From Candidatus Methanomethylophilaceae archaeon (GTDB lineage: Archaea; Thermoplasmatota; Thermoplasmata; Methanomassiliicoccales; Methanomethylophilaceae): a stretch of DNA of 16,187 bases. The translations under genes and the position numbers were made by a program. The stretch covers positions 1 to 16,187 of the forward strand of contig JAVESW010000020.1 in the NCBI GenBank assembly GCA_034006405.1, read 5' to 3'. The stretch's first letter is position 1; each line of letters starts with the position of its first letter. Below the pieces are notes generated by a model. The model was given only the letters and a program-made list of their open reading frames with translations, was not told the DNA's origin and ran no database searches. Below are positions 215 through 14,062 of the stretch, piece after piece.

Positions 215-1183
215 CTAAACAGCGACAAACATTTCCGATTTATTTGTTAATGTAGTTATTATAATACATATAATTTGGTATTCAAAAATGCGACTAAATA
301 CCTGCATCAAAATAACCAACGAGGAAGGAAAAACCCTCAACGGCATCGCCGAAAACCCCGGCTTCATCAGCCCCACCGACCTCATCACCGCCTGGGTCCA
401 CCCCCCCATCTGCAAAAAGGCAACATACGGCGAACCGTCCCCTGACCACGTCGCCGAACGGACGACATCATAATAATGACGCGAATATCTTAAGGGGACC
501 TGCTTCCCTTCCGGAAGATTTGCCACACTATGAAGGATGAGGATCTTTTCCCAGAACGTTCGTTCGGGATGTACGGTTAAAACATCGGTTGACTTTTGCC
601 CGAACAGGTTCGGATATTTTTCGGCAGAATACGGCTGGATCATCTCCCAGCCGGCTGGAGTGCATGCTGCAAGAGGACCTATCTCCAGACGTATCTCCTG
701 AAGGATCGATGCATCGGAAAAACCATTTGGATACCTGAAGATTATGGTCTGCTTATCATTATCCAGGATCCCCATATCTACCGAAATGCCAAGTTCCTCT
801 GACAAATCATTTCGGATCTGCGGGAGAAAGAGATCCTTGAGAAATATCTCTGCACGGCGGTCAGCCTCTTTGTTAAAGTGATCCTGCCGATTCTTTGTCC
901 GATCCTTCCAGGGTTCGTCTTTTTCATAATCCAGAATACACCAATCAAGAATCAGATCGATATCCTCAGAAAAACGATCAATCAGCCCGTATGCTTTTGA
1001 TAAACTCGTTCCTCCCTTGAAGGTCAGATTATTTTTCCAGGGACATTCGTGAAATAGATAATCCAGCATCCAGCAGACCCAGAAGTCTTTCTCAATAATT
1101 GCCTCATTGATCCCCATTTTGTCGGCAGTGTTCCTGAATAATGCTTCACGATCTTCTGCCGGGCGTTTTGCAATATTTTTCAT
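215..1183 (-). CDS. abiEii: AbiEii/AbiGii-family nucleotidyltransferase toxin (DUF1814) of a type IV toxin-antitoxin system
   Basis: 322-aa ORF with hallmarks of the family: N-terminal EKDFWVCWMLDYLF, the nucleotidyltransferase motif FKGGTSLSKAYGLIDRFSEDIDL, and a C-terminal RYSRHYYDV. Its start lies 6 nt after the stop of the upstream antitoxin-like gene on the same strand. The last ~25 aa (AT-rich, IICIIITTL...) may be read-through rather than true coding. Confidence 0.75.
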   Translation of the reverse strand: MKNIAKRPAEDREALFRNTADKMGINEAIIEKDFWVCWMLDYLFHECPWKNNLTFKGGTSLSKAYGLIDRFSEDIDLILDWCILDYEKDEPWKDRTKNRQDHFNKEADRRAEIFLKDLFLPQIRNDLSEELGISVDMGILDNDKQTIIFRYPNGFSDASILQEIRLEIGPLAACTPAGWEMIQPYSAEKYPNLFGQKSTDVLTVHPERTFWEKILILHSVANLPEGKQVPLRYSRHYYDVVRSATWSGDGSPYVAFLQMGGWTQAVMRSVGLMKPGFSAMPLRVFPSSLVILMQVFSRIFEYQIICIIITTLTNKSEMFVAV

Positions 1184-1189
1184 GGTTTT

Positions 1190-1795
1190 TTATGCACATA
1201 TTTGTCTGACCGTTCCGGAGATCCAGACAGATGAGCGCTTTGTGTCCTCTAAGAGGGATGTTTTTTCTCCAGGGGTGAGCCTGTCGGATAATTGTCTGAT
1301 GAATTTTTCATTCATCTTATCTTTTCCGATCGCTTTCAATGCCTGAATGATAAGTGCGGATTTTTCTGAAAGATTTGTGATGTCTTTATTTGATGTATGC
1401 TTGAATTGTATCGTGACATTTCCGTATGCGTATTTTTTGTAGGGGCCGTCGGAAGCATATGTCCATGAGGCGGGGACCTGGGTGGATATTCCGAGCATAT
1501 TGAGGGCAGCATCTTCATAGGGGACAATTGTCCAACCGAAATTGCGTGCAAGAGCTTTTGCTATTTCATGGGGCGAGGGAGCGACGTATTCATTAAGAAA
1601 TGTGTTGTAGGCGGGATATTCGTATATGCCCCACATGATCCGGCGGATCGTTTTGTCTTGAACTAGCCGTGATAATACTTTTTTTATCGTTGGGATCGGG
1701 GCGATGTCGGTAAAATCAGAGATGACGAATATTGTGCCTTTCTTTGATGTGGTTATTCGCTCTTTGATTTTTTCATGATAGGTTTCTTTCCGCAT
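1190..1795 (-). CDS. abiEi: AbiEi-like (DUF6088-type) antitoxin / transcriptional regulator partnered with AbiEii
   Basis: The ORF is open to 1843, but the likely start is the internal Met at 1795 (MRKETYHEKIKERI...). The TIFVISDF...VLSRLVQDKTIRRIMWGIYEYP stretch matches the N-terminal region of AbiEi antitoxins. Gene order (antitoxin immediately upstream, co-directional, 6-nt gap to toxin) is the canonical AbiE arrangement. An AT-rich TATA-like stretch (minus-strand aataatatata, about 1825-1838) sits just upstream. Confidence 0.6.
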   Translation of the reverse strand: MRKETYHEKIKERITTSKKGTIFVISDFTDIAPIPTIKKVLSRLVQDKTIRRIMWGIYEYPAYNTFLNEYVAPSPHEIAKALARNFGWTIVPYEDAALNMLGISTQVPASWTYASDGPYKKYAYGNVTIQFKHTSNKDITNLSEKSALIIQALKAIGKDKMNEKFIRQLSDRLTPGEKTSLLEDTKRSSVWISGTVRQICA

Positions 1796-1975
1796 TATCG
1801 TGCGTATAGTTATGTCACTAAAAGTATATATTATTGGTGACAAGAGGGAGTTTGTAATATGGAGTGGGGATAAGAAAAATCAACCGTGTTCGCCGACTAT
1901 CGGTTGGTTCTCCGATCCAGCCTGACTTTGACAGTTAGCTGAAAGTATCCAGAAGGCCCAACCGATAAAACTGAT

Positions 1976-2597: not shown

Positions 2598-2834
2598 TCA
2601 ACGCTCCTCATCTAATTCATCTACTCTTACTCTATCAGAAAGGGAACAGCGGTTCATTACCGGATCCCAGATTTCACAGGCATCTTTAAAACAGATTCCA
2701 GGAACCTGATCTAATGTTGCACAGTAACCGAGAGTAAATGGACACAATTTATGATTATTATCGGCAAAGACCATACGATTTGAGATATGGTCATACAGTT
2801 GGAGTCTGCCGTGTTCATCAGTCCATTTACGCAT
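2598..2834 (-). CDS. Small Cys-rich hypothetical protein (78 aa, 5 Cys), last gene of the minus-strand operon
   Basis: Its ATG (reverse complement of 2832-2834) lies immediately after the TGA of the upstream SPFH gene (2838-2840), implying translational coupling. The poly-T terminator follows. No recognisable family; it could be spurious. Confidence 0.35.
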   Translation of the reverse strand: MRKWTDEHGRLQLYDHISNRMVFADNNHKLCPFTLGYCATLDQVPGICFKDACEIWDPVMNRCSLSDRVRVDELDEER

Positions 2835-2837
2835 ATT

Positions 2838-4469
2838 TCATTCCTGTTTCTTCCCGCAGCTTGGACAGAAAACATCTCCGTTTGGAACATTCGCTGAACA
2901 GTATTGACATTGTGTACTTCCTTCAGGAGCGACATTAACAACAACCGGCGCCCCCATGCCCCCTGTAACAACGGTTGCCCCGGGATTTTGAGCCGTAGAG
3001 CGGGCAGTCGCCGTATTCCCCATAGCATTCAGCGCAGAATTCATTACCTCCTTCATCTGCTCGGCATTCTCCTTATATTGACTCTGCATCATCATGTTGA
3101 ATGCCTGCTGATCCTTGATGCGCAATTCGTTCAATTGTTCAACTGATTCAAGTTTGGCACGAGTTGCTAATGCCTCGGCAGCTGCCTTCGGGTCTTTTGC
3201 ATTCATCGCAAGGATCTGTTCTGGCGTCAGGCTGTTTGCTCTCTTTGCAAGTTCAAGCTGAACGAGGGCGCCGACCTTCTGATCATCGACCAGAGAAATG
3301 AGCACTTCGATCGATGCCTCTGAGAGATTTGCGATCTTTTGTCTCTCATCCTCGCGTTTGATCGCCTTGTTTTGTCTTTTGAACTCCAGTAGCTGCTCGA
3401 TCTCCTTGCGGTCTTTTTCCAGTTCGTGATCATGTCTTGCAGAATCACGAGCAAGCTCATGACCTAAATTCGCATCAGCTCTCTGGTTCCCCAATTCCTG
3501 ATCAAGGGATTTTATGGTATGGTCCGCATTAATCTGACCAACGGCATCTTCCGTTCCTGCTTCACGCAGATAGGCTTTCTTTTCATACTCTGCTTTGGCT
3601 TTGCCCACTTCGATCTGCAAACTCTCGCGTGCTCCAAGAACCTCTTTCCAGGCTCCTTCATCAAAACCCACACAGTTCAGATGAGAAATCTCTATACCCC
3701 TGTTACCAAAGTTTGCATTCAGATTTTTCTTGAACTCATTACTCAATTCCTGACTGAGAACTGCATTTCCGTACAGTTCTTCGATATTATATTGGGATAT
3801 TTTATTCTGGGCAATATTTTTGAGTTCTGCATGAATGCAGTTCTCGATGTCCGCAAGACTAACGTGCTGTTCACGTTTCAGATAGTTTTCAAGAAAAGCG
3901 ATCGGATCTTTGATCTGTGCCGTCACTTTACCTGCAGCTCCAACGGATATTGCATTCTTTGAGCGTAACTCACCTTTTGGAATCATGAAGGTGAGAGGAA
4001 TCTCTCCGGCATCAACAAGAATAACCGTTGTTCGCTCATCAAGTCTCAACTGACCAATGGTATCAAAGATGTTTCCAAGATTGTATGCGCCTGCAGGAAG
4101 TGTTCCTTTGTAAATTCCTCCCTGAAGAAGAATGGCTTTTGTTCCCTGTTCTACAGTGAGTCGTTTTGCAAAGACACCTCGGAGATCCTGAATATCAAAT
4201 CTCTGCGCGAAGTCGCCCGGCATTCTCATCCACTGACGATTTTTGCCTAGTTCTTTGGAGGTGTCGGCAATTCGTGTTGTTTGCGGCGATTCCAAGAGCT
4301 TTGCACCGCATTTTCCACAAAATGCAGCTCCCTGATTTAGTTTTGCACCACATACAGGACAGGTGCCACTTTCCGTTCCTCCAAGTCTTTTACCGCACGC
4401 TCCGCAAAACTGACTTCCGGCGGGGTTTTCATGACCACAGGAACAGGTAATTTTTTTATTAAACAGCAT
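2838..4469 (-). CDS. SPFH/Band-7 (stomatin/flotillin-like; Band_7_1 / YdjI-like) protein with N-terminal tandem zinc ribbons and a C-terminal zinc ribbon
   Basis: 543 aa. The N-terminus has three CxxC...CxxC pairs (CSCGHENPAGSQFCGACG, CPVCGAKLNQGAAFCGKCG). The C-terminus has CQYCSANVPNGDVFCPSCG. The central region follows the SPFH pattern (TTVILVDAGEIPLTFMIPKGELRSKNAISVGAAGKVTAQIKDPIAFLENY ... NFGNRGIEISHLNCVGFD), followed by a long E/A/K-rich, flotillin-like coiled coil. Start is ATG at 4467-4469. Confidence 0.6.
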   Translation of the reverse strand: MLFNKKITCSCGHENPAGSQFCGACGKRLGGTESGTCPVCGAKLNQGAAFCGKCGAKLLESPQTTRIADTSKELGKNRQWMRMPGDFAQRFDIQDLRGVFAKRLTVEQGTKAILLQGGIYKGTLPAGAYNLGNIFDTIGQLRLDERTTVILVDAGEIPLTFMIPKGELRSKNAISVGAAGKVTAQIKDPIAFLENYLKREQHVSLADIENCIHAELKNIAQNKISQYNIEELYGNAVLSQELSNEFKKNLNANFGNRGIEISHLNCVGFDEGAWKEVLGARESLQIEVGKAKAEYEKKAYLREAGTEDAVGQINADHTIKSLDQELGNQRADANLGHELARDSARHDHELEKDRKEIEQLLEFKRQNKAIKREDERQKIANLSEASIEVLISLVDDQKVGALVQLELAKRANSLTPEQILAMNAKDPKAAAEALATRAKLESVEQLNELRIKDQQAFNMMMQSQYKENAEQMKEVMNSALNAMGNTATARSTAQNPGATVVTGGMGAPVVVNVAPEGSTQCQYCSANVPNGDVFCPSCGKKQE

Positions 4470-4514: not shown

Positions 4515-5078
4515 TTAAATTCTAGGCTCCAGAATGAGATTTTCCACCTCAATCTTTGCAGAAGCAATACTTTCATCATCTACCCTTAGTGCTTTCATAA
4601 GACCCAGAATTTTATCATATTCATCAGATGATCCATTATTTGTTGTGGCAAGGATTTCAGTGATCCGCTTTTTTTCGGTTTCTGCCTGAACCTCCGTATT
4701 CTCACGCTCTTTCAACAGCTGATCTACATCGATCTTACTGAATATGTTGTGTTTTTGATGTGCCTGGTCTTTCTTTTCCTCTTTTATCCGTAGAAGATTT
4801 GCGACTGCCATCTGTTTGTTTTCGGTTGCGAGGATCTGCTGGAGGAGTTCATTTTTTATGAGCATTTGATTCGTTACTTGCCGGGCTGCAAACTGAGTTT
4901 CGATTTCTGATGCAGCATTTTTTCCTGCATAGAGATTTGCTTCAATTTTTTCGTCAGCTTCTTTCATTTGTTTCATAAGAGTGGAATATTGGTATTCCAG
5001 CTCAGCGGCCGTTATGCGCAGATCACCAGAGGAGATCTTGTCAAGGCCGTTTTTCCGTCCAAAGATCCCGCGGGCCAT
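4515..5078 (-). CDS. ESCRT-III/Snf7 (CdvB)- or PspA-like small coiled-coil protein, paralog 2
   Basis: 187 aa, starting MARGIFGRK (compare MxxFGK/MGIFSR N-termini of Snf7 and PspA). Predicted long helical hairpin, then an acidic C-terminus with an amphipathic helix (DEYDKILGLMKALRVDDESIASAKIEVENL) resembling a MIT-interacting motif. The ATG sits 2 nt after the stop of the upstream paralog, so the two are coupled. Assigned from architecture only. Confidence 0.45.
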   Translation of the reverse strand: MARGIFGRKNGLDKISSGDLRITAAELEYQYSTLMKQMKEADEKIEANLYAGKNAASEIETQFAARQVTNQMLIKNELLQQILATENKQMAVANLLRIKEEKKDQAHQKHNIFSKIDVDQLLKERENTEVQAETEKKRITEILATTNNGSSDEYDKILGLMKALRVDDESIASAKIEVENLILEPRI

Positions 5079-5080
5079 TT

Positions 5081-5698
5081 TTAGAACTCACTTTTTTCTA
5101 AGGATTTTTCGATGTCTTTCTCGATCGAGAGCATGCTTTCCGCTTCGGATACATTCATACTGCCTGCCTCAACACTGTTCCAGATATCAAACATCTGCCT
5201 TTCTCCTTCGTCAACATCAGAATCAGAAGCCGTGGTTTCGTCAAGTGCAACGATGTTGTTGAGATTTTCGAGAACTTTCTCAAAATTATTCCCGGACAGG
5301 TTGACTTTGATGAGGGACTCCTCGAAGCTCTTAGGAGAGAGACTCTGAATTGTTTTCCAGATCTGAGTGTTCTCCAGATCACGCTGATACGTTTTGAGGA
5401 TGAGGAGGTTGGACACAAACATGTACTGTTTGTGTAAGGTCAGGAAGTTCTTGATTTTGAGTTTTCCGCTCATATCAAGTTGTTTTAACTCCTGCGCGAT
5501 CATCTTTTTCTTGATCAGATCGGCTCCTATACCCTCATTAAAAAGGGATTTTTTCGCTTTTTCAATTGTCTCGATCTCTTTTCTGAGACGATTGATCCTG
5601 ATTTTGAGTCTGAGCTCTTCTTCCTGGAGTTCTGTGCTCGTGAATTTGTCGATCGCAGTATTTTTTTTGAACGGATTTTTCAGTTCCATTTTTGTCAC
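5081..5698 (-). CDS. ESCRT-III/Snf7 (CdvB)- or PspA-like small coiled-coil protein, paralog 1
   Basis: 205 aa. The ORF begins with GTG at 5698 and the first ATG is at 5689 (MELKNPFKK...). It has a basic N-terminal helix (ELRLKIRINRLRKEIETIEKAKK), a second long helix, and a strongly acidic C-terminus (DETTASDSDVDEGERQMFDIWNSVEAGSMNVSEAESMLSIEKDIEKSLEKSEF), typical of ESCRT-III autoinhibitory/MIM tails. A minus-strand TATA-like atttatatc (5722-5730) lies about 25-35 nt upstream. Confidence 0.45.
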   Translation of the reverse strand: MTKMELKNPFKKNTAIDKFTSTELQEEELRLKIRINRLRKEIETIEKAKKSLFNEGIGADLIKKKMIAQELKQLDMSGKLKIKNFLTLHKQYMFVSNLLILKTYQRDLENTQIWKTIQSLSPKSFEESLIKVNLSGNNFEKVLENLNNIVALDETTASDSDVDEGERQMFDIWNSVEAGSMNVSEAESMLSIEKDIEKSLEKSEF

Positions 5699-5828
5699 AA
5701 GGATTTCATTGGTTTTTCATCGATATAAATCTATTCTCCAAAACGGATTATAAATATAATAACCTTAAAATCGAATGTCCAATGTGGTGATAGAAATATA
5801 TAGTCATAAAACATATTCCTTATTTAAT
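5699..5828. promoter_or_regulatory. AT-rich divergent promoter region between the minus-strand ESCRT-III-like/SPFH operon and the plus-strand TPR/MIT-AAA/Sel1 operon
   Basis: TATA-like boxes on both strands (5722-5730 for the minus operon; ttataaatataat at 5748-5760 and gaaatatatag at 5794-5804 for the plus operon). Their spacing is consistent with leaderless or short-leader archaeal transcripts starting at 5689/5698 and at 5775 or 5829. Confidence 0.4.
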
Positions 5829-6344
5829 ATGGATTATCTGATTTTGGTAGATTATCAGTCCGATGCGGAGCGTAAACGGATAGATTACGCTATTGAACGC
5901 TGGAAGGATAAGGGGAAAATACATAAAACGAAAGGAACGGTGATCCATTATGCCGGAGATGATGTGGATGATTTTCTTGATGATCTTTATTCCCGTCTGA
6001 GTGTTGGAACCGGATCCGTTCATATTTTTGCAGGAGACATCTATTCTCCTGATATCAATGAGCAAACAACCCAGCTGAAATATACTACGACTATAGATTC
6101 AACTGCGGTTGAGAATTTCCTGAAATATCTCATGAATAAACTCGGGGCTTCGTTCGAAGGAACAAAACAGGGAATCAAATCATATACCGCATACACAAAG
6201 AAAGGACAGGCAGGGATCGATGTTACTTTAACGGCTGGAGATAAGACGGCTGTTTTAGTTGTTGTGCGGGGGTACGGGGACGTAGTTTCGTTTATTGCTG
6301 GGAGAATCGATAAGGAACTGAAGGTTTTCCTAGAGGTAGAGTGA
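5775..6344 (+). CDS. Hypothetical protein, first gene of the plus-strand operon
   Basis: 189-aa ORF. An alternative leaderless start at ATG 5829 (MDYLILVDYQSD...) is equally plausible. The stop (6342-6344) lies 3 nt before the next ATG (6348). No family recognised; the N-terminal YLILVDYQSDAERKRIDYAIERW has only a faint Cas2-like flavour. Confidence 0.55.
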   Translation: MSNVVIEIYSHKTYSLFNMDYLILVDYQSDAERKRIDYAIERWKDKGKIHKTKGTVIHYAGDDVDDFLDDLYSRLSVGTGSVHIFAGDIYSPDINEQTTQLKYTTTIDSTAVENFLKYLMNKLGASFEGTKQGIKSYTAYTKKGQAGIDVTLTAGDKTAVLVVVRGYGDVVSFIAGRIDKELKVFLEVE

Positions 6345-6347
6345 ACA

Positions 6348-7082
6348 ATGATAAAAACTGAACGCTATCAAATTTTGTACAATGAAGGCAGAATGAATTT
6401 GAACAGAGGAAGATACACGGATGCTCTCAAATCATTTGAAAATGCAAGACGCGAATTGGATAATTCATATGTATATTCCGGAATTGGGCGTGCATATTAT
6501 GGTCTTGGAAAATACAGCGATGCTCTGAAAAATTTTGAAATAGCATGCATGAGATACTCTGGAAATATTCAGGCAACTCACTGGATGGCAAAGACTCTCG
6601 GAAAAATGAAGCGCTATAACGAGGCTGAAACACTGTTTAATGTGGTGTTGAGAAGATTAGGGAACGGGCCTGTAAATTTCTATCAGGAAGTCTTTGCCGA
6701 CTATGAAGATATGAAAAATGAAAGAGCTGGAATCAAACCTAGGGATTCGTTTTCTCAACCTCTGATGTCATATTCTTTGAACAAAGATTCGTCTACAAAA
6801 ATAATTTTCAACGGTGATATTTCTGCCCCTGTAAATATTGGGGGAGTCCAGGCAACTGATAACGCAATACTGAATCGTCCGGTAATAATGAGAGAGCCCG
6901 GTACTGGCTGCAATGTCCCAATTGAACAAATCATCCAAAGATCCGAAGAGCGAAATACCGTGGATATAAAACCAACAGGTATCCTTTCACGTATTATTAA
7001 GAAAGAAACGTGTGCGAATTGTGGGGCACCGACTCAGGAAGATCAACACTATTGTAACAAGTGCGGGAGGAAACTCCAATGA
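6348..7082 (+). CDS. TPR-repeat protein with a conserved C-terminal linker motif (GGVQATDNAILNRPV) and a C-terminal zinc ribbon (CANCG...YCNKCG)
   Basis: 244 aa. The N-terminal ~120 aa hold three TPR-like units (YTDALKSFENA..., YSDALKNFEIA..., YNEAETLFNVV...). The C-terminal CxxC-x10-CxxC motif is at the end. Its TGA forms an ATGA overlap with the downstream AAA ATPase start. Confidence 0.75.
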   Translation: MIKTERYQILYNEGRMNLNRGRYTDALKSFENARRELDNSYVYSGIGRAYYGLGKYSDALKNFEIACMRYSGNIQATHWMAKTLGKMKRYNEAETLFNVVLRRLGNGPVNFYQEVFADYEDMKNERAGIKPRDSFSQPLMSYSLNKDSSTKIIFNGDISAPVNIGGVQATDNAILNRPVIMREPGTGCNVPIEQIIQRSEERNTVDIKPTGILSRIIKKETCANCGAPTQEDQHYCNKCGRKLQ

Positions 7083-8248
7083 AAATCGATCTCAGCGGAC
7101 CTCTATATGATGCCCTGAAAAAAGCCACCGCAGAGTATGCATCCCTGATTGAGAAAAATGACCTTCCCGGAGCCACAAAAAAAGCTGCTGAGATCGCGAG
7201 GTTCTATCATGAACTTGCAAACATGAATCCCGTGAACAAAAAAGAATATCTCGAGCGTGCAGCAAAATGGGAGAGAGTATCATCTGGAAAAATACGATCA
7301 AAACAAAAACCGTCCCAGTCACCTCATACTGAAACCGAGAAAGAAGAGGAAAATGAAATGAGCCAAAAAGCCTCCTCTCTTATCAAGACCTCCAATGTCA
7401 AATGGTCCGATATCGGCGGGCTTGATTCTGTAAAAAAACTGATGATGGAAACGGTGGTGATCGCAGGTCTCCAAAAACCCGAGTCCATCAAACCCTGGAA
7501 AGGCATTCTTCTCTTTGGACCTCCGGGGACCGGGAAAACCCTTCTTGCGGCTGCGGCGGCAGGAAGTCTGCATGCAACCTTCTATGATGTGAAATCGGAG
7601 AGTGTGCTCTCAAAATATTTCGGTGAATCTTCAAAACTGATTTCTGCGCTCTACAACTCGGCAAGAGATCACTCCCCCTCGATCGTTTTCATTGATGAGT
7701 TCGATGCTCTCAGTCAGTCCCGGGACGGGGAAACAAGCGAGGCGACGCGTAAAGTCCTCTCCAGCCTCCTTACAGAATTGGATGGGCTTTCCGACAAGAA
7801 AAGTGATCAGCTTCTCCTCACTCTTGCAGCGACAAATACCCCGTGGGATCTGGATACAGCAGTTTTATCCCGTTTTCCACGGCGGATCTATGTTCCTCTT
7901 CCGGATCAGAAAGCGTGTAAGGAGATCATAAAGATCCAGACAAAAGGCATGGACATCTCAGGAGTTTCTCTTGAGAGCATTTCCGAAAAGTGTGCGGAGA
8001 TGCTCTACTCAGGACGGGATATTTCCAACTTCTGTCAGCAGGCGATATGGACGATGATCCATAGAGTGAACCCAGATCTCTACAAAATGGCTGAATTATC
8101 ATTTGATGAACTGAAAATGCGGAATTTGCAGACGATCCCTCTTGCTGATGATGATTTTCGTGAAGCTTTTATGAAGATCCGCTCACCAATAACAAAAAAT
8201 AAGATTGAACAATACGAACAATGGAACGATGAGTGTGGTGAAGTGTAA
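7079..8248 (+). CDS. Vps4/CdvC-like meiotic-clade AAA+ ATPase with an N-terminal MIT domain
   Basis: The ORF track starts at GTG 7061, but ATG 7079 has a strong GGAGG at 7066-7070 and forms an ATGA overlap with the upstream stop. The N-terminal ~70 aa (LYDALKKATAEYASLIEKNDLPGATKKAAEIARFYHELANMNPVNKKEYLERAAKWERV) fit the three-helix MIT pattern of Vps4. The AAA core has Walker A GPPGTGKT and Walker B IVFIDEFDAL, and the Vps4/katanin-specific stretch LAATNTPWDLDTAVLSRFPRRIYVPLPD (compare Vps4 [28 protein letters not shown]). Confidence 0.85.
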   Translation: MKIDLSGPLYDALKKATAEYASLIEKNDLPGATKKAAEIARFYHELANMNPVNKKEYLERAAKWERVSSGKIRSKQKPSQSPHTETEKEEENEMSQKASSLIKTSNVKWSDIGGLDSVKKLMMETVVIAGLQKPESIKPWKGILLFGPPGTGKTLLAAAAAGSLHATFYDVKSESVLSKYFGESSKLISALYNSARDHSPSIVFIDEFDALSQSRDGETSEATRKVLSSLLTELDGLSDKKSDQLLLTLAATNTPWDLDTAVLSRFPRRIYVPLPDQKACKEIIKIQTKGMDISGVSLESISEKCAEMLYSGRDISNFCQQAIWTMIHRVNPDLYKMAELSFDELKMRNLQTIPLADDDFREAFMKIRSPITKNKIEQYEQWNDECGEV

Positions 8249-8250
8249 AG

Positions 8251-9864
8251 ATGGGATTTAGCTTTTTTAATAAGGAAAAACGAGCAGCGGAACAGTACAC
8301 GAAAGCAGCAGAACAGGGAGATGCACGTGCACAATTCAATCTTGGAGTGTGCTATGCCCTTGGGATGGGGGTGGAGAAAGACCAGAAAAAAGCGGTATAT
8401 TGGTACACGAAAGCAGCAGAACAGGGACATGCAGATGCACAAAATTATCTCGGGTTGTACTATGATTTTGAGGATGAGGAGAAGGATAGGGAGGAGAAAG
8501 AATGGGTTTCCAGTACAAGAGCAAGGGCAGAACAGGGAGATGCTGATACACAAAATCATCTCGGGATGTGCTATGACTTTGAGATGGGGGTGAAGAAAGA
8601 CCAAAAAAAAGCGGTATATTGGTACACAAAAGCAGCGGAGCAGGGAAATGCGTTTGCACAAAATTTTCTCGGTGAGCACTATAAGGGGGGTGTGGGAGTG
8701 GAAAAAGACCAGAAAAAAGCGGTATATTGGTACACAAAAGCAGCAGACCAGGGAGATGCACGTGCGGGATATGCACGTGCACAAGTCAATCTCGGGGTGT
8801 GCTATGAGAGGGGTGTGGGGGTGGAGAAAGACCCGAAAAAAGCGATATATTGGTACATGAAAGCAGCAGAACAGGGAGATGCTGATGCACAAGTCAATCT
8901 CGGGGTGTGCTATGAGAGGGGTGTGGGGGTGGAGAAAGACCCGAAAAAAGCGGTGGAGTGGTGGACAAAAGCAGCAGAACCACGCCCAACATTATCGAGA
9001 GATGTAGTAGACCCGGGAAATGAAGAGGCACAAACCAATCTCGGGTGGTGCTATGAAAATGGGGTGGGTGTAGAAAAAGACCAGAAAAAAGCGGTGTATT
9101 GGTACACAAAAGCAGCAGACGAGGGAGGTGAACGTGCAGGATATGCACGTGAGGGATATGCACGTGCACAAAATAATCTCGGGTTGTGCTATGAAAATGG
9201 GGTGGGGGTGGAGAAAGACCAGAAAAAAGCAGTATATTGGTACACGAAAGCAGCAGAGCAGGGAAATGCAATGGCACAAGATAATCTTGGGAGGTGCTAT
9301 GAGAGGGGTGTGGGGGTGGAGAAAGACCTGAAAAAAGTTGTATATTGGTACACAAAAGCAGCGGAGCAGGGACATGCTGATGCACAATTCAATCTCGGGT
9401 CGTGCTATGAGAATGGGGTGGGTGTGGAAAAAGATCTGAAAAAAGCGGTGATGTGGTTTACCAAAGCAGCGGAGCAGGGAAATGCACGTGCACAAACTAA
9501 TCTAGAGTTGTGTTATAAGAATGGGGTGGAAAAAGACCAGAAAAATGCGGGATATGGTTACACGAAAGAAGCAGAACAAGGAGATGCTGATGCACAAACC
9601 AATCTCGGGTTGTGCTATGAATTGGGGGAGGCGGTAGAAAAAGACCTGAAAAAAATTGTGTACAATGTAAACTATTTTTCGGCGGAAAAAATAATTCAAG
9701 GAAATATCGGTGTCTATGCAACAGATGATGCGATCGTCCATCGTCCGGTTGTGGGTGAGAAGGGATCAGATGATCCGAAAAATATCTTTTGCCCGTATTG
9801 CGGCAGACAACTTCCAGACGATGCAAGATTCTGCACTGGGTGCGGAAAACAAATTAGTGGATAA
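8251..9864 (+). CDS. Sel1-repeat (SLR) protein with about 13 tandem repeats, the conserved linker motif (GVYATDDAIVHRPV) and a C-terminal zinc ribbon (CPYCGRQLPDDARFCTGCG)
   Basis: 537 aa. The canonical Sel1 consensus recurs (AQxNLGxCYExGxGVEKDxKKAVYWYTKAAEQGxAxAQ). Its ATG is 3 nt after the AAA ATPase stop, so they are coupled. The many antisense ORFs over this region are artefacts of the DNA-level tandem repeat. Confidence 0.85.
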   Translation: MGFSFFNKEKRAAEQYTKAAEQGDARAQFNLGVCYALGMGVEKDQKKAVYWYTKAAEQGHADAQNYLGLYYDFEDEEKDREEKEWVSSTRARAEQGDADTQNHLGMCYDFEMGVKKDQKKAVYWYTKAAEQGNAFAQNFLGEHYKGGVGVEKDQKKAVYWYTKAADQGDARAGYARAQVNLGVCYERGVGVEKDPKKAIYWYMKAAEQGDADAQVNLGVCYERGVGVEKDPKKAVEWWTKAAEPRPTLSRDVVDPGNEEAQTNLGWCYENGVGVEKDQKKAVYWYTKAADEGGERAGYAREGYARAQNNLGLCYENGVGVEKDQKKAVYWYTKAAEQGNAMAQDNLGRCYERGVGVEKDLKKVVYWYTKAAEQGHADAQFNLGSCYENGVGVEKDLKKAVMWFTKAAEQGNARAQTNLELCYKNGVEKDQKNAGYGYTKEAEQGDADAQTNLGLCYELGEAVEKDLKKIVYNVNYFSAEKIIQGNIGVYATDDAIVHRPVVGEKGSDDPKNIFCPYCGRQLPDDARFCTGCGKQISG

Positions 9865-10560: not shown

Positions 10561-12897
10561 TTATTTAAATGGATTGTATGTCAGCGATATTAACCAACTG
10601 AGAGGCATACTAAGTATGAATCCACATATTGGTCCTCCAATCCATACACTTACTACTTGAATCCAGCCAGGAATATTCCATCCATCACCCTGTGTACCCA
10701 TAACAATTGCAAACACAATAAACATAACTACCACCATGCCAATAACTGTAACCCCAATATCAGACGCTTGTTGATGATCTCGGCTCATGGAAATGTACTC
10801 ACCACGCTTCTTATGCATGTATGACAGAGTATCTTTTGCATCTTTGTATTTTGAATACTCTTTTAATGATGATACGGCTTTATTATAATTATTGGTAAAA
10901 GCATTCTTTGCATAATTATAATTATCCTGATTATCCTTTATAAAGGAGTTCTGAATTAACAAATTTAAATAATCATCAAATTCAGAACGTATTGAGACAC
11001 ATACATGTTTACATTGTTCTTTACGTATTGGTTCTAAACATTGCTGAGCTAACTCACTTGAGTCCCTGTAACCATCCAGTGAAATAAATAGTGTTTGAGC
11101 ACGTGAATAATCACCAGATTCCATCGCTCTCTTTGCATCTATATAAATCCTCTCAGTATCCAGAGCGAGACATTTATTCGCCAGTTCAGACGAATCCTTA
11201 TAATTCCCTAAGGAGAGGGATTCATTCCGAGCACGGATATAGTCACCACCATTCATTAAAGCAATTGTATCTTTGTATTTTTTTTCAGTCTCCAACTCGA
11301 TACATTTTTTCACCAACTCTGCTGAGTCCTTGTACTCTTTTAACGATAAAAATACTTCACGGGCACTAAGATAAACCCCCATATTCATCATATTGATTGC
11401 ATCCGTATATTTCTTATCAATATCCAGTGCCGTACATTTCTTTGCCAGTTCAACTGAATCTTTATAACCCTTTAATGATTCAAAAATACCACGAGCAGTT
11501 ATATAATAGCCACCGTTCATAGTATTTTTTGCATCTATATAAATCCTCTCAGTATCCAGAGCGAGACATTTATTCGCCAGTTCAGACGAATCCCTATGGT
11601 CTTTGATTTTAAGGAATTTCTCCCTCGCCTCCATAAATTTATTGGAATTCAGGATTTCCTTTGCTTCAGCATACCAGACATCATGATTCTGATAGAGATA
11701 CTGTTCAAGAGTCTGTTTATACTCTGCATCAGCAAAACGAATGGCTTTCTTAAATAGGTCTTCATCCCGCAAATATATTTTAAGTTTTGTTAATTCATCT
11801 GGCGTGCGGACATTTTTTTGAACCATCAGTTTTCCTATGTAGGCTTGTGAGTATTCGGGATCGAAATCCAATGCTCGCTCAAGTAATTCATCTGCCCTGC
11901 TGATTTCTCTTTCCTCTAAGAAAAGGAAAGCACGTTTTACTAAGGGTGCTGCATTACTATCTGATTTTGAAGATGCAGATGCAGCAGATGTTTGTTCTGT
12001 TCCAACCAGTTTTTTCAGATTTCTGGTTAAATCAGGCATAAACGCAATATTAGACATATCCAACGCTTGAAGATGTGAGAACTCATCCGGCAAATCATAT
12101 GCATCCATATCCCTGAAACAAGGAATAAGAGTTTTTTTCTGACTCTTATCTATTTTCATCATGTGCAAATAACGTGACCACTCATTTTTAACCCAGATGG
12201 CATTGAAATATTCCTGCCTCGTTCCAAGAACAAGCATCACTTTTGCAGAAGATAAAGCTGCATAAATATATGGTTCATATTCTACACCAAGCTTGTCTTC
12301 AAGTGTGATAGCAGCATAGAACGTTTTCAAACCAGAATTAGTCAGTTCATGATAAATTTCATTGGCAATTACGCTGTCACGTGTTTTCTGACCATTTTCA
12401 TCTTTTTCCTTGTAACAGATAAAAACATCAAATGGCTTCTCAGATTTAACAATATCTAGAATCTTTCGTTGGAGATCATTGATTTCTTTTGCCTGAATCT
12501 CATAAACCAACTTGGCAGTTGAATCTGCATTCTGAAGTGTAGCAATGTAGTCTGAGTCAGTTAAAATAGATTCGAGTTGTGTTCTATGACATGTTGGGTG
12601 TCTGTTTCCAGTTTGAGTATCCTCAACATATTCTACACCATACTTACATAGAACAATCCCCCAATGTGCCTCTGCTTGAGTGTTATCAATGTCTAAAATT
12701 TTTTCATAAGCATCAACTGCTTTATCAAATTCACATTTTATGCGTAGATTATTTGCACGGTTGAAAAGATTGATGACAATATCATCACCACTTGTTGAAA
12801 GGGTCTGTTCCGTACCGCAATTATCACAAATGATAACTGAAACACCATTTGGAACATCCAAATTGCCACCACACATTTTACATTTGAATTGTGTCAT
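10561..12897 (-). CDS. Multidomain protein: N-terminal zinc ribbon, TPR-like helix pair, TIR domain, at least five tandem 44-aa repeats, and two C-terminal transmembrane helices
   Basis: 778 aa. Zinc ribbon: CKMCGGNLDVPNGVSVIICDNCG. TIR signature: FDVFICYKEKDENGQKTRDSVIANEIYHELTNSGLKTFYAAITLEDKLGVEYEPYIYAALSSAKVMLVLGTRQEYFNAIWVKNEWSRY. The 44-aa repeat recurs as YKDSxELAxKCxxLDxEKxYxDAxxxMNxGxYxxARxxFxSLxx. C-terminal hydrophobic stretches are VTVIGMVVVMFIVFAIVMG and IQVVSVWIGGPICGFILSMPLSWLISL. The region is AT-rich compared with upstream genes. Confidence 0.8.
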   Translation of the reverse strand: MTQFKCKMCGGNLDVPNGVSVIICDNCGTEQTLSTSGDDIVINLFNRANNLRIKCEFDKAVDAYEKILDIDNTQAEAHWGIVLCKYGVEYVEDTQTGNRHPTCHRTQLESILTDSDYIATLQNADSTAKLVYEIQAKEINDLQRKILDIVKSEKPFDVFICYKEKDENGQKTRDSVIANEIYHELTNSGLKTFYAAITLEDKLGVEYEPYIYAALSSAKVMLVLGTRQEYFNAIWVKNEWSRYLHMMKIDKSQKKTLIPCFRDMDAYDLPDEFSHLQALDMSNIAFMPDLTRNLKKLVGTEQTSAASASSKSDSNAAPLVKRAFLFLEEREISRADELLERALDFDPEYSQAYIGKLMVQKNVRTPDELTKLKIYLRDEDLFKKAIRFADAEYKQTLEQYLYQNHDVWYAEAKEILNSNKFMEAREKFLKIKDHRDSSELANKCLALDTERIYIDAKNTMNGGYYITARGIFESLKGYKDSVELAKKCTALDIDKKYTDAINMMNMGVYLSAREVFLSLKEYKDSAELVKKCIELETEKKYKDTIALMNGGDYIRARNESLSLGNYKDSSELANKCLALDTERIYIDAKRAMESGDYSRAQTLFISLDGYRDSSELAQQCLEPIRKEQCKHVCVSIRSEFDDYLNLLIQNSFIKDNQDNYNYAKNAFTNNYNKAVSSLKEYSKYKDAKDTLSYMHKKRGEYISMSRDHQQASDIGVTVIGMVVVMFIVFAIVMGTQGDGWNIPGWIQVVSVWIGGPICGFILSMPLSWLISLTYNPFK

Positions 12898-13090: not shown

Positions 13091-14062
13091 ATGTATCCGA
13101 GTGATTCAACCACAAACTTATCTGACAAATTTAATAATGAGAATAAACATGATGAATTGGAAAAGCAATTAGCATTATATTCCTGTTATTTGGATGGCTC
13201 ATGCGGATTTGAAAAAAATCCTGAAAAAGGACTATCATTAATTATTAAAATTGCAGAACAAGATAATGTAAATGCCCAGATTCTGTTAGCTGCCCTATAT
13301 TATGCAGGTGAGAAAGTTAGATTGAATCCAGAAGCTGCTTTCTATTGGTACTCTAAAGCAGCAGAACAAGACAATACAACTGCACAGTATAAATTAGGCT
13401 ATTTTTATAAAAATGGAATTGGTGTTGATAAAAATCTTCAAATATCAAAATATTGGTATACTAAAGCAGCAAAGAAAGGACATACAGTATCACAAAAAGA
13501 ACTTGGTGATATTTACAAAAAAAGTAATAATGTAGAAGATTTAATATCAGCTATTTATTGGTATACTAAAGCAGCAGAACTTGGAAATATAGATGCTCAA
13601 AATTCATTAGGAATTTGTTATGCTAATGGAACCGGTGTTGAAGAAGATGCTGAAAAAGCAGTATCTCTATTTACAAAAGCGGCCAAAAAAGGAAATGCTG
13701 ATGCACAGTATAATTTAGGAATATGTTATTTCAATGGATTCGGTGTTGATAAAAATAAAATAAGAGTTAAAGAATGGATTGAAAAATCAATAGAACAAAA
13801 CTACGAGCCTGCACTTAATTTTGCTGAAAATCATCCAGAACTTAATTTCAAAAATACACAAAGCATAGTCTCTAATATTTACAATGTAACTGGAGATTAT
13901 ATTCAGGATAACCATGGTGTTATTGCAAAAGATGATGCCATAGTATATCGTACAAATCTAAATAATGAACAAGCTACCACCCCATCTTTTTGTTCTCAAT
14001 GCGGATGTCCGGCAATAACAGGTGACATATTCTGCAGAAAGTGTGGTGGAAAATTACAATGA
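13091..14062 (+). CDS. Sel1-repeat protein paralog with the conserved linker motif (GVIAKDDAIVYRT) and a C-terminal zinc ribbon (CSQCGCPAITGDIFCRKCG)
   Basis: 323 aa. Sel1 consensus units (AQYKLGYFYKNGIGVDKNLQISKYWYTKAAKKGH..., AQNSLGICYANGTGVEEDAEKAVSLFTKAAKKGNADAQYNLGICYFNGFGVDKN). Same domain order as 8251..9864, but with a strongly AT-biased codon choice. Confidence 0.85.
   Translation: MYPSDSTTNLSDKFNNENKHDELEKQLALYSCYLDGSCGFEKNPEKGLSLIIKIAEQDNVNAQILLAALYYAGEKVRLNPEAAFYWYSKAAEQDNTTAQYKLGYFYKNGIGVDKNLQISKYWYTKAAKKGHTVSQKELGDIYKKSNNVEDLISAIYWYTKAAELGNIDAQNSLGICYANGTGVEEDAEKAVSLFTKAAKKGNADAQYNLGICYFNGFGVDKNKIRVKEWIEKSIEQNYEPALNFAENHPELNFKNTQSIVSNIYNVTGDYIQDNHGVIAKDDAIVYRTNLNNEQATTPSFCSQCGCPAITGDIFCRKCGGKLQ

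Follow-up and report, generated by a model that had tools for sequence, protein, structure and literature searches.

The gene at 7079-8248 of the window (the whole stretch of DNA analysed, 16,187 nt) encodes an AAA ATPase and is embedded between genes for repeat proteins with zinc ribbons (ZnR), which raises the question of what kind of ATPase this is and with which partners it works. An earlier note had described it as a Vps4-like enzyme with an MIT-like N-terminus, made stoichiometrically with its two neighbours. The features of the locus are given below, with the basis of each in brackets.

2838..4469, minus strand: YdjI-like SPFH-ZnR protein (Pfam Band_7 2.9e-10, Band_7_1 5.5e-4, DZR 4.6e-12)
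4515..5078, minus strand: putative ESCRT-III-like protein B, 187 aa, N-terminus GIFGRKNGLDKI (BLASTP to T. profundus gene)
5081..5698, minus strand: putative ESCRT-III-like (Snf7-family) protein A, 202-205 aa (BLASTP to T. profundus gene; charge profile)
5699..5828, no strand: AT-rich divergent intergenic region between two operons (sequence reading)
5829..6344, plus strand: arCOG08177-like ESCRT accessory protein (BLASTP to T. profundus arCOG08177)
6348..7082, plus strand: TPR-ZnR protein, 244 aa (Pfam TPR_2 1.3e-11, Zn_Ribbon_1 2.5e-5; module alignment)
6852..6881, plus strand: motif core ATDNAILNRP of the TPR-ZnR gene (regular-expression scan)
7079..8248, plus strand: Vps4-like AAA+ ATPase, 389 aa (Pfam, NCBIfam, PDB hits, NJ tree)
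7094..7285, plus strand: predicted MIT-like three-helix bundle, residues 6-69 of the ATPase (predicted structure)
7505..7900, plus strand: AAA cassette core of the ATPase (Pfam AAA, residues 143-274; motif comparison across clades)
8093..8239, plus strand: Vps4_C-type C-terminal helix region, IEQYEQWNDECG (Pfam Vps4_C, residues 339-387; katanin alignment)
8251..9864, plus strand: Sel1-ZnR protein, 9 Sel1 repeats, 537 aa (Pfam Sel1 5.9e-123, Zn_Ribbon_1 3.8e-8)
9718-9747, plus strand: motif in the 537-aa Sel1-ZnR gene (regular-expression scan)
10561..12897, minus strand: protein with N-terminal ZnR, TPR, TIR, helical repeats and two C-terminal TM, 778 aa (Pfam TIR_2 2.6e-11)
13091..14062, plus strand: second Sel1-ZnR protein, 323 aa (Pfam Sel1 9.4e-51)
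13925-13954, plus strand: motif in the 323-aa Sel1-ZnR gene (regular-expression scan)

The ATPase gene is the third of a tight four-gene operon, preceded by the arCOG08177-like and TPR-ZnR genes and followed by that of the larger Sel1-ZnR protein. A second operon, divergent from the first, comprises the genes of ESCRT-III-like proteins A and B and of the SPFH-ZnR protein, which lie 1.4 kb upstream of the ATPase gene on the opposite strand. The intergenic region 5699-5828 contains a TATA-like TTTATATC on the minus strand (5729-5722) and TTATAAATATAA (5748-5759), from which candidate promoters are inferred. Rfam and tRNA scans of the whole window gave no matches. Of all the proteins encoded at the locus, the 778-aa TIR protein alone has TM-like segments.

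The coordinates of the ATPase gene and both of its junctions had been given exactly. At its start, the ATG (7079-7081) and the TGA (7080-7082) that ends the upstream gene (6348-7082) overlap, forming the ATGA described; at its end, the TAA (8246-8248) is separated by 2 nt from the ATG of the downstream gene at 8251. GGGAGG is found at 7065-7070, 8 nt ahead of the ATPase ATG. Given that all of the aligned homologues (28/28) begin with MKIDL, the ATG at 7079 is the true start, and not the GTG at 7061 of the mechanical ORF. The 4-nt overlap between the TPR(-ZnR) and ATPase genes is repeated in four related loci (L086, L088, L093, and L094), and the tight packing is therefore conserved and no chance feature of the window. 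This overlap shows co-transcription and makes translational coupling possible; the stoichiometric synthesis that the earlier note had read from it goes too far. Depending on the locus, the ATPase gene is surrounded by two to four TPR/Sel1-ZnR genes, a variation that speaks against a fixed 1:1:1 complex.

It is clear from its motifs that the protein has a single AAA+ cassette, with intact Walker A (GPPGTGKT) and Walker B (FIDEFD), an aromatic pore loop (KYFG), and a sensor-1/SRH stretch (ATNTPWDLD..LSRF) that retains the SRH arginine. The Walker A, Walker B, pore loop 1, and SRH motifs are invariant across the family. Pfam matches AAA at 1.9e-36 and Vps4_C with 20.6 bits, slightly below the cut-off of 21.3, and Vps4_C is also present in the precomputed Pfam matches of many homologues. 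Both the aromatic pore loop and the Vps4_C-type helix, which had been named as checks of the assignment, are found in the protein. NCBIfam CdvC matches residues 67-384 with 186 bits, and the Vps4 of Thermococcus and Archaeoglobus are 59-63% identical to the ATPase over the full length.

The signature TNTPWDLDTAVLSRFPRRIYVPLPD, taken in the earlier note as specific to Vps4, is indeed present, but it is a mark of the meiotic clade and not of Vps4 specifically because katanin has the same form. In the alignment, the form PWD.D...(S/R)RF is common to Asgard and TACK Vps4/CdvC and missing from Cdc48 D1/D2. The single SRH arginine (LSRF, not RRF) was considered as a peculiarity of the family and rejected, given that Asgard Vps4 have the same. 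An NJ tree confined to the ATPase family, Asgard and TACK Vps4, and Cdc48 D1 and D2 (87 sequences, 261 columns, Kimura distances) supports the family at 100% and splits all of the Vps4-like sequences from Cdc48 D1 and D2 at 100% bootstrap. The alignment and phylogeny therefore set the ATPase apart from Cdc48, and the claim of a Vps4-like AAA ATPase of the meiotic clade is supported.

Within this clade, katanin p60 is the top single-domain PDB match, with 197 bits, a pairwise score above the 186 bits of NCBIfam CdvC. The sequence alignments to PDB entries run end to end, including the C-terminal helix, for katanin, spastin, FIGL1, and CdvC; the helix IEQYEQWNDECG aligns with katanin LEKYEKWMVEFG, is present in Asgard Vps4, and is missing in Cdc48 D1. 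Foldseek with the full AF2 model, the large AAA subdomain of which has low confidence, ranks 19 meiotic-clade chains above any Cdc48. The fact that the top PDB matches in sequence and fold are katanin, spastin, and FIGL1, not Vps4, would suit a dedicated unfoldase or chaperone that acts, in the manner of katanin and spastin, on the solenoid ZnR neighbours or another cytoplasmic polymer and has no membrane role, the coiled-coil neighbours being SMC-like and structural. This is improbable in our view, given that the NJ tree groups the ATPase with the Vps4 of Asgard and TACK archaea, that the MLSRF and YExWxxxFG motifs are common to it and Asgard Vps4, and that an SPFH protein and Snf7-family arCOGs are its neighbours in conserved synteny.

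Other identities were considered and rejected. A phage origin was discarded because tblastn against phage records gave generic FtsH-like AAA matches only, and the defence ATPases IetA and TRIP13 because the similarity is that of AAA proteins in general. For IetA, the PADLOC match (122 bits) covers the AAA core alone, the NCBIfam IteA score is 114.6 bits against a cut-off of 510, and no protease, such as an IetS partner, is present in the window.

The MIT-like bundle of the earlier note stands as a fold but not as a sequence match. Three helices are confidently predicted at the N-terminus of the ATPase (H6-25, H29-49, and H51-69; pLDDT 82.7), which would fold as an MIT-like three-helix bundle, while MIT was not detected by Pfam on 23 N-termini, by PDB profile search, or by hhalign against Asgard/TACK MIT. 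The MIT call rests on the predicted structure because these searches were negative or insignificant.

It had also been proposed that cdvB-like genes be sought elsewhere in the genome; they were found, but within the window itself, at 4515-5698 on the minus strand. Protein A matches the T. profundus gene at L001 2808-3422 (BLASTP 2e-54), and protein B the second T. profundus Snf7-family gene, at L001 3422-4036 (BLASTP 2e-6); these genes are arCOG09747/09749 in Table S1 of Makarova et al. 2024 (PMC10936438). The fold was also sought by sequence with a family alignment and with an 85-member ESCRT-III-like alignment built from an exhaustive search of representatives; Pfam Snf7 matches four of the 85 members of the protein A family. 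The PDB profile search with the ESCRT-III-like family finds CdvB weakly (E 0.036), and hhalign against bathyarchaeal CdvB is in register over 153 columns, but with E 0.026 and a probability below 2%. With this weak direct signal, the 205-aa and 187-aa proteins are putatively assigned to ESCRT-III from the published arCOG annotation and the T. profundus homology.

Typical ESCRT-III proteins have a charge split, basic at the N-terminus and acidic at the C-terminus, and a short basic-hydrophobic N-terminal motif. In protein A, the N-terminal half is basic (+10) and the C-terminal half acidic (-13), with EAESMLSIEKDIEKSLEKSEF as the acidic C-terminal helix of the 205-aa protein, and the ESCRT-III-like proteins of the locus carry a short basic-hydrophobic N-terminal motif. 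Both properties speak against an unfoldase acting on cytoplasmic structures, in favor of which one may cite the statistically weak ESCRT-III homology and the NCBI name of the 205-aa family, 'chromosome assembly protein'. Paired ESCRT-III-like genes are also found in L002, L085, L088, L092, and L094.

The arCOG08177-like gene, directly upstream in the operon, is read from 5775 in the mechanical ORF, with the ATG at 5829 as the likely start; its counterpart in L090 has a gene call of 171 aa. The protein matches the T. profundus arCOG08177 gene, which is listed in Table S1 of PMC10936438, with a BLASTP value of 2e-40 and 37% identity over 168 aa. The arCOG08177 proteins consist of an inactivated Cas2-like N-terminus and a TBP-fold domain/DUF3568 (PMC10936438), an architecture that may be extended by homology to the protein of the window.

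The SPFH-ZnR gene lies 45 nt downstream of that of ESCRT-III-like protein B and has orthologues at the same position in L085, L092, and L094. It encodes two N-terminal zinc ribbons, an SPFH/Band 7 domain, a coiled coil, and a C-terminal zinc ribbon, and no TM or hydrophobic segment was found in the protein. YdjI, an SPFH protein that is likewise soluble and ends in a zinc finger, is needed to bring PspA to the membrane (PMC8581546). The SPFH-ZnR protein has the properties of a YdjI-type partner: it lacks a TM segment, its C-terminus carries a zinc ribbon, and its gene adjoins that of a putative polymer-forming protein.

The repeat genes flanking the ATPase gene had been recognized correctly, with TPR and Zn_Ribbon_1 upstream and nine Sel1 repeats and Zn_Ribbon_1 downstream, and such genes are its conserved partners in related loci. 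The C-terminus of the TPR-ZnR protein comprises the motif ATDNAILNRP, an amphipathic GILSRIIKK stretch, and the zinc ribbon; the motif lies within a longer conserved IxFNGDxxAPVNIGGxQATDxAIxNRP. Both Sel1 proteins (537 aa and 323 aa) carry the same motif and end in a zinc ribbon. A regular-expression scan of all the loci compared found the motif restricted to ESCRT loci of the ZnR type. This tail of ATDDAIxNRP plus zinc ribbon, common to the TPR/Sel1 proteins, is previously undescribed. The TPR/Sel1-ZnR genes also show a recombination scar.

At least six related loci from metagenomes repeat the arrangement with SPFH-ZnR and TPR/Sel1-ZnR genes, conservation of the neighbourhood being judged on metagenomic contigs. 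The full layout (SPFH-ZnR, two ESCRT-III-like, divergent arCOG08177-like, TPR(-ZnR), and Vps4) is found in L085 and L094, and the same core with a different gene order in L092; L088, L086/87, and L093 show those parts of it that are within reach of the contigs. The Vps4 of these loci are 58-79% identical to the ATPase of the window.

The 778-aa TIR protein keeps its position in L089-L091, and in L002-L004 three TIR proteins flank the ESCRT core. An AbiE toxin-antitoxin pair adjoins the locus, and a transposase was seen beside it in one contig. In both their varying number and their recombination scar, the TPR/Sel1-ZnR genes resemble the sensor arrays known from defence systems. The family is also rare, with a patchy occurrence (131 clusters in 1.84 billion representatives). 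All of this could point to an antiviral or conflict system, with the TPR/Sel1-ZnR proteins as variable sensors, TIR as an NAD+-consuming effector, and the AAA, ESCRT-III-like, and SPFH proteins as a membrane effector or repair arm. Nonetheless, such a system is unlikely. The TIR protein is missing from L086, L093, and L094 and is probably a strain-specific accessory, and the AbiE pair is a variable flank, missing in L091. The PADLOC and IteA scores of the ATPase reflect generic AAA similarity, the other genes have no PADLOC match save weak Sel1-repeat matches to PtuA models, and the core has its homologue in a chromosomal ESCRT system that is conserved widely.

A Cdv-like cell-division machine was also considered, since crenarchaea divide by an apparatus with Vps4/CdvC and ESCRT-III paralogues at its core (PMC5840170), and is highly improbable. 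Three bathyarchaeal CdvA sequences (PRC barrel and coiled coil), used as tblastn queries, gave no match below E = 1. The region around the locus is variable, its family is rare, and Makarova et al. (PMC10936438) argue that euryarchaea with complete FtsZ machinery employ these systems for a purpose other than division. The ATPase is probably the Vps4 (ESCRT-IV) of the ESCRT-like membrane-remodelling system of the euryarchaeal 'Main clade', in a variant with another accessory set.

For this Main-clade Vps4, the established Vps4/ESCRT-III mechanism suggests that the two Snf7-family proteins would polymerise on a membrane, where the soluble SPFH-ZnR protein may help to position them, as YdjI does for PspA. 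The Vps4 hexamer would dock through its MIT domain on the acidic C-terminal helix of the ESCRT-III-like subunits and thread them through its pore, leading to polymer turnover and membrane scission or repair. More speculatively, the TPR/Sel1 solenoids could be interchangeable adaptors for cargo or stress sensing that plug in through their shared C-terminal module of ATDDAIxNRP motif, linker, and zinc ribbon. We know of no experimentally demonstrated function for any Main-clade euryarchaeal ESCRT system. In T. kodakarensis, disruption of Vps4 homologues left vesicle production unaffected (unpublished result in the review PMC10117752).

That TIR proteins recur as neighbours is a hint of a possible link to immunity. 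One may imagine an ESCRT-III/Vps4/SPFH machine wired to immunity or stress sensing, in which diversifying solenoids detect a viral protein or envelope damage, dock through the ATDDAIxNRP and zinc-ribbon handle, and direct repair, vesicle shedding or, with TIR, abortive infection; the chances of this are small, and, if true, it would be an archaeal counterpart of the eukaryotic ESCRT repair of immune pores. In such a machine, the handle might be a new kind of MIT-interacting motif. Because the adaptors share a small, easily mutated handle, hypotheses on its interaction with the MIT domain, the TBP domain, or SPFH are directly testable. Reviews up to 2021 still stated that euryarchaea lack ESCRT-III, and the public labels 'ATP-binding protein' and 'chromosome assembly protein' can now be corrected.

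Compared with known systems, the ATPase is a genuine Vps4-like enzyme, probably of a euryarchaeal ESCRT family that has already been published, and the novelty lies in its helper proteins with zinc-ribbon tags. The earlier note had held that the arrangement is not seen in Cdv or Asgard loci; TPR/Sel1-ZnR neighbours are indeed lacking in the cdv loci of TACK archaea and in the Asgard loci compared, but the gene is not without a place, since it probably belongs to the published Main-clade system (PMC10936438). With crenarchaeal CdvABC, Asgard, and eukaryotic Vps4-ESCRT-III systems, the locus shares the MIT-like, AAA cassette, and C-terminal helix layout and the adjacent ESCRT-III genes, and with Asgard Vps4 the LSRF form of the SRH. 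It differs in lacking CdvA, ESCRT-I, ESCRT-II, and ubiquitin components and in an MIT unrecognisable by sequence; the Vps4-type beta domain is also missing from the AF2 model, a difference of low weight.

The Main clade combines Vps4 arCOG01307, Snf7-family arCOG09747/09749/07402, arCOG08177, and arCOG09748, with or without a Ser/Thr kinase and a phosphatase (PMC10936438). The Vps4, the two adjacent Snf7-family genes, and the arCOG08177-like gene of the window are homologous to its members. The Vps4, arCOG08177, and arCOG09747 genes of a close relative, Methanocorpusculum bavaricum, are in Table S1 of that work. The arCOG09748 protein with a C-terminal winged helix is said to occur in all Main-clade systems (PMC10936438). 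Tblastn with the T. profundus query found none in the window, L085, L086, L088, L089, or L002, and did find it in L005, L006, and L007. Its gene could lie in another part of the genome; M. bavaricum does not appear in the arCOG09748 list either (PMC10936438). The membrane Ser/Thr kinase and PP2C phosphatase, frequent and non-universal in the clade (PMC10936438), had no match in the window or sister loci; a PP2C/kinase-like gene lies 7 kb away in L093. Instead of arCOG09748 and kinases, the window and its sister loci have the SPFH-ZnR protein, two to four TPR/Sel1-ZnR proteins and sometimes TIR, which are absent from the discussion of the Main clade in the main text of PMC10936438. The variant is thus compact, with seven to nine genes, the winged-helix/kinase module being swapped for a YdjI-like SPFH protein and handle-sharing adaptors.

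The Meth_adaptin system of Methanosalsum zhilinae (PMC10936438) also has, next to Vps4 and ESCRT-III, a protein with SPFH, coiled coil, and zinc ribbon and a further accessory protein that bears a zinc ribbon. However, its Vps4 belongs to another clade, adaptin-appendage, GOLD, and ProX proteins take the place of TPR/Sel1 as accessories, and arCOG08177 is missing. In the pspA-ydjGHI operon of B. subtilis, the SPFH protein YdjI is likewise paired with a polymer-forming protein, although this system is bacterial and without a Vps4-type ATPase, its polymer is PspA and not Snf7-like, and its membrane receptors YdjG and YdjH have no evident counterpart in the window. The variant connects the Vps4 systems of archaea with the PspA-SPFH stress systems of bacteria, in support of an ancient partnership of SPFH and ESCRT-III proteins.

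The Vps4-like AAA ATPase is the third of four genes in a plus-strand operon (5829-9864), with spacers of 3 nt, -4 nt, and 2 nt. A minus-strand operon diverges from it, running from 5698 down to 2838 in the order ESCRT-III-like A, a 2-nt spacer, ESCRT-III-like B, a 45-nt spacer, and a gene for an SPFH protein. The 130-bp intergenic region between the two operons is AT-rich and, by direct reading, contains putative TATA-like elements on both strands. The core of this system is homologous to the published Main-clade ESCRT system of archaea, which consists of Vps4, Snf7-family proteins, arCOG08177 (inactivated Cas2 plus a TBP fold), and arCOG09748 (winged helix), and is often accompanied by Ser/Thr kinase and phosphatase genes (Makarova et al., mBio 2024, PMC10936438). 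Table S1 of that work lists genes of Thermococcus profundus, and also Vps4, arCOG08177, and arCOG09747 of Methanocorpusculum bavaricum (PMC10936438). The T. profundus locus (L001) is a Main-clade ESCRT system that encodes, 5' of Vps4, proteins of 171 aa and 615 aa, two more of about 205 aa each, kinases, and a PP2C phosphatase. The core genes of the window are the following:

4515-5078, minus strand: ESCRT-III-like B (BLASTP 2e-6 to the second Snf7-family protein of T. profundus)
5081-5698, minus strand: ESCRT-III-like A (BLASTP 2e-54 to the first Snf7-family protein of T. profundus)
5775/5829-6344, plus strand: arCOG08177-like gene (BLASTP 2e-40 to the T. profundus arCOG08177 protein)
7079-8248, plus strand: Vps4-like ATPase, 389 codons (ATG 7079-7081, TAA 8246-8248)

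Given that these neighbors match the T. profundus Snf7-family proteins, the cdvB-like genes that the earlier note would have sought elsewhere in the genome do exist, but in the window itself, 1.4 kb upstream of the ATPase and on the opposite strand.

The ATPase was said to be embedded between two zinc-ribbon repeat proteins, and Pfam supports all three architectures: TPR plus zinc ribbon (ZnR) for gene 6348-7082, AAA (1.9e-36) with a sub-threshold Vps4_C match (20.6 bits versus a cut-off of 21.3) for the ATPase, and nine Sel1 repeats plus zinc ribbon for gene 8251-9864. Both junctions were also described correctly, as the ATG at 7079-7081 overlaps the upstream TGA at 7080-7082, and two bases separate the TAA at 8246-8248 from the Sel1-ZnR ATG at 8251. 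A mechanical ORF list opens the ATPase frame at GTG 7061. The correct start is ATG 7079, given that all 28 aligned homologues begin with 'MKIDL/MKVDL' and that GGGAGG lies 8 nt 5' of this ATG. In the Sel1 gene, GC skew is extreme (up to +0.39) and is accompanied by AT skew, and many spurious long opposite-strand ORFs are found there (e.g., 8080-8892 and 8894-9385).

The ATPase itself belongs to a known family, with intact motifs and abundant, conserved homologues; Thermococcus and Archaeoglobus proteins are 59-63% identical over the full length, and Pfam Vps4_C is present in many of them. Its NCBIfam scores for Cdc48-D2 (200 bits), CdvC (186 bits, nearly full length), and PAN (176 bits) are alike and all far under the family cut-offs. 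In the PDB sequence search, the top single-domain match is katanin p60 (197 bits, residues 102-386), while Cdc48/VAT domains reach at most about 159 bits each, and the second region of homology (SRH) lacks the two-residue 'PG' insert of Cdc48. Katanin is also the top match of the last 138 residues alone (67 bits), with an end-to-end alignment through 'IEQYEQWNDECG' against 'LEKYEKWMVEFG'; spastin, fidgetin-like 1, and archaeal CdvC (4lcb) align end to end with this region as well. When the full AF2 model, which has only moderate confidence (pLDDT 69.8), is the query, Foldseek places 19 meiotic-clade chains (katanin, spastin, FIGL1, and Vps4) ahead of the first Cdc48.

A neighbor-joining tree was built from 87 AAA cassettes (261 columns, 100 bootstraps), comprising family members, Asgard Vps4, bathyarchaeal/TACK CdvC, and Cdc48 D1 and D2 from a genome scan. 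The family is monophyletic at 100%, is joined by a diverged Thermococcus paralogue at 100%, and forms with Asgard and TACK Vps4/CdvC a clade split from Cdc48, again at 100%. Motifs in common with Asgard Vps4 are 'ATNxPWD(L/I)D' and the 'YExW..FG' helix, and the SRH form 'LSRF' is that of Asgard, TACK having 'RRF'. The references of this tree are Asgard and TACK Vps4/CdvC and Cdc48, with no PAN, katanin, spastin, or eukaryotic Vps4, and for this reason placement inside Vps4, more narrowly than 'meiotic clade', depends on the affinity to the Asgard/TACK sequences and on the gene neighborhood. An identity of the ATPase as IetA/IteA was rejected, given that the PADLOC and NCBIfam similarity is of a generic AAA kind.

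The proposed N-terminal MIT-like bundle holds at the level of predicted fold but not of sequence detection. None of 23 family N-termini matches Pfam MIT, the PDB profile search with the family N-terminus found no MIT domain, and hhalign against an Asgard/TACK MIT-region alignment gives a probability of 2.9%, yet in register helix for helix. The AF2 model of the isolated N-terminus (23-sequence alignment; pLDDT 82.7, pTM 0.69) has three helices, at 6-25, 29-49, and 51-69. Among the Foldseek matches, only archaeal Vps4 MIT domains and MITD1 reach a TM of some 0.7 or above under both normalizations, with insignificant E-values for this very small domain. By its modeled structure the N-terminus is MIT-like, while it is not recognizably MIT by sequence.

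For the ESCRT-III-like proteins, the published Snf7-family assignment is accepted here on support weaker than wished, and the ESCRT-III fold is putative. The 205-aa family of ESCRT-III-like A, which NCBI names 'chromosome assembly protein', has no Pfam match as a family; Snf7 matches 4 of its 85 members (best E 3.4e-4). An exhaustive profile search of 1.84 billion representatives returned only 131 clusters, nearly all of about 200 aa. The 85-member alignment pairs with bathyarchaeal CdvB/ESCRT-III over 153 columns in register (hhalign E 0.026, probability 1.9%), most of these reference sequences matching Pfam Snf7 themselves, mostly under its cut-off. CdvB (9s9j) was found in register in the PDB search at E 0.036. 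ESCRT-III proteins typically have a basic N-terminal half, an acidic C-terminal half, and a short basic-hydrophobic N-terminal motif. The charge split of ESCRT-III-like A (+10 and -13 in the N- and C-terminal halves) and the N-terminal motifs 'GIFGRKNG' and 'NPFKKNTA' fit this pattern.

The three TPR/Sel1 proteins of the window share their C-terminal module with eleven others from sister loci: a motif, a linker of 33-85 residues, and a CxxCG...CxxCG zinc ribbon, hereafter the handle. The motif reads 'I-x-I-x-G-(D/N)-x-x-A-P-(V/I)-N-(I/V)-G-G-x-Q-A-T-D-D-A-I-x-N-R-P' in the TPR class and 'IQGN(I/V)GVYA(T/K)DDAIVxRP' in the Sel1 class. Elements of the handle in the window are:

6852-6881, 9718-9747, and 13925-13954, plus strand: conserved motif with core 'ATDDAIxNRP' (preceded by 'IxIxGDxxAPVNIGGxQ' in the TPR class)
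7010-7040, plus strand: pre-ribbon stretch 'GILSRIIKK' (L086/L088 equivalents 'GFFSKIFGSKK' and 'GFLSKFLGRKK')

The motif has no Pfam match and, in a regular-expression scan of all 94 fetched loci, was found only in ESCRT loci that carry such proteins (ZnR-type loci). Among 5.8 billion proteins, a word-indexed search retrieved no more than ten clusters; TPR or Sel1 repeats or a zinc ribbon are present in the top six, and the others match mainly the ribbon. TPR-class linkers carry 'G(F/I)(F/L)S(K/R)I(F/I)..KK' directly before the ribbon. This stretch resembles the ESCRT-III-like N-termini 'GIFGRKNGLDKI' and 'SLFSKFFGKKNPLDI', and may be an amphipathic membrane-binding helix common to both.

The copy number of TPR/Sel1-ZnR genes differs among loci, and in L088 a 121-aa chimeric ORF (2661-3026, plus strand), in which a Vps4-MIT-like fragment is fused to an arCOG08177-like C-terminal part, sits within an array of three TPR-ZnR paralogues and looks like a recombination scar. 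Together these indicate that the adaptor array is being reshuffled, which argues against the earlier reading that the ATPase and two adaptors are made stoichiometrically, and fits interchangeable adaptors docking by a common handle to a putative partner.

The variant layout with its ZnR-type accessory set is conserved across loci, and the Vps4 proteins of the window-like loci form a derived subclade in the neighbor-joining tree:

L085: one strand, Sel1-ZnR, SPFH-ZnR, two ESCRT-III-like; other strand, arCOG08177-like, three TPR genes, Vps4
L086/87 and L093: TPR-ZnR, Vps4, then one or two more TPR-ZnR genes
L088: one strand, two ESCRT-III-like; other strand, arCOG08177-like, three TPR-ZnR, Vps4, Sel1-like ZnR
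L092: arCOG08177-like, Vps4, two ESCRT-III-like genes, SPFH-ZnR
L094: one strand, SPFH-ZnR, two ESCRT-III-like; other strand, arCOG08177-like, two TPR genes, Vps4

In L092 (1-9000), the Vps4 locus adjoins another AAA gene, divergent and of 581 aa, a TPR protein of 844 aa, and a cluster of small genes with NikA-like and HNH_3 matches, a neighborhood that suggests a mobile element. The nearest cultured relatives are Methanocorpusculum, and an ESCRT-III-like A gene 100% identical to that of the window is found in a MAG with the label Ca. Methanomethylophilaceae. The close-homologue records P0006, P0011, P0121, P0142, and P0144 lie on near-identical contigs under conflicting names (Paludibacter, Bacteroidales, Cloacimonetes, Ca. 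Methanomethylophilaceae, or Methanocorpusculum); the bacterial labels are implausible, and several of the conflicts are probably binning errors.

Beyond the operons lie two further features:

215-1843, minus strand: AbiEii/AbiEi toxin-antitoxin pair, at the left end
10561-12897, minus strand: TIR protein of 778 aa, between two Sel1-ZnR genes

The TIR protein combines a zinc ribbon at the N-terminus with TPR, a TIR domain, helical repeats, and two predicted C-terminal TM segments (about residues 706-765); no other protein of the locus is predicted to be integral to the membrane. Its position is kept in three independent contigs. It also contains about five repeats of a 40-residue unit, 'DSxELAxKCxALDTExxYxDA'. 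No TIR proteins were found in L086, L093, and L094, while three surround the ESCRT core in L002-L004, a more distant branch whose Vps4 is 61% identical. There, two ESCRT-III-like genes and Vps4 are flanked by TIR-methyltransferase, TIR-LRR, and ThsB-like TIR proteins, with a short DZR/SPFH-like protein and RyR-domain and TrkA_N proteins nearby. Contig L091, otherwise identical, lacks the AbiE pair, and in L090 a MULE transposase comes after it, so the pair is a variable flank outside the system. AbiEii is matched over residues 1-242 of 322 only, and its C-terminal part looks frameshifted or replaced. A defense role of the locus is possible, though this TIR and island association is all that speaks for it.

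By analogy with PspA/YdjI, SPFH-ZnR would nucleate or position polymers of ESCRT-III-like A/B on the membrane. Hexameric Vps4 would then bind these polymers via its MIT domain and pull subunits through its pore, as in the Vps4/ESCRT-III mechanism, and this extraction would lead to membrane remodeling, repair, or vesicle release. More speculatively, the TPR/Sel1-ZnR proteins might choose cargo or sense signals, plugging in by the shared handle, and the TIR-TM protein of some strains might supply a membrane anchor or effector.

Compared with the published Main clade, the window and its sister loci lack the winged-helix arCOG09748 and the kinase and have a different accessory set instead. In tblastn searches with the T. 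profundus proteins, both were found in the classical Main-clade loci L005-L007 (Archaeoglobus, Methanothermococcus, and a Methanomicrobiaceae MAG) and neither in the window or sister loci; the arCOG09748 list of Table S1 does not include M. bavaricum either (PMC10936438). The SPFH protein has two zinc ribbons at the N-terminus, then a Band 7 domain, a coiled coil, and a further zinc ribbon at the C-terminus, with no TM segment found. It shares this architecture with YdjI of Bacillus subtilis, an SPFH protein that is soluble, ends in a zinc finger, and is needed by PspA to reach the membrane (PMC8581546). Makarova et al. noted an SPFH, coiled-coil, and zinc-ribbon protein only in the separate 'Meth_adaptin' clade, and for the Main clade, TPR, Sel1, and TIR partners go unmentioned in their main text (PMC10936438). 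The accessory variant overturns nothing, and offers a compact, testable way into euryarchaeal ESCRT function. While the system core is already published, its accessory configuration is, as far as could be found in the literature consulted, new: it combines a YdjI-like SPFH-ZnR protein with TPR/Sel1 adaptors that bear a novel handle of motif plus ribbon, has lost the winged-helix and kinase module, and occasionally includes TIR partners.
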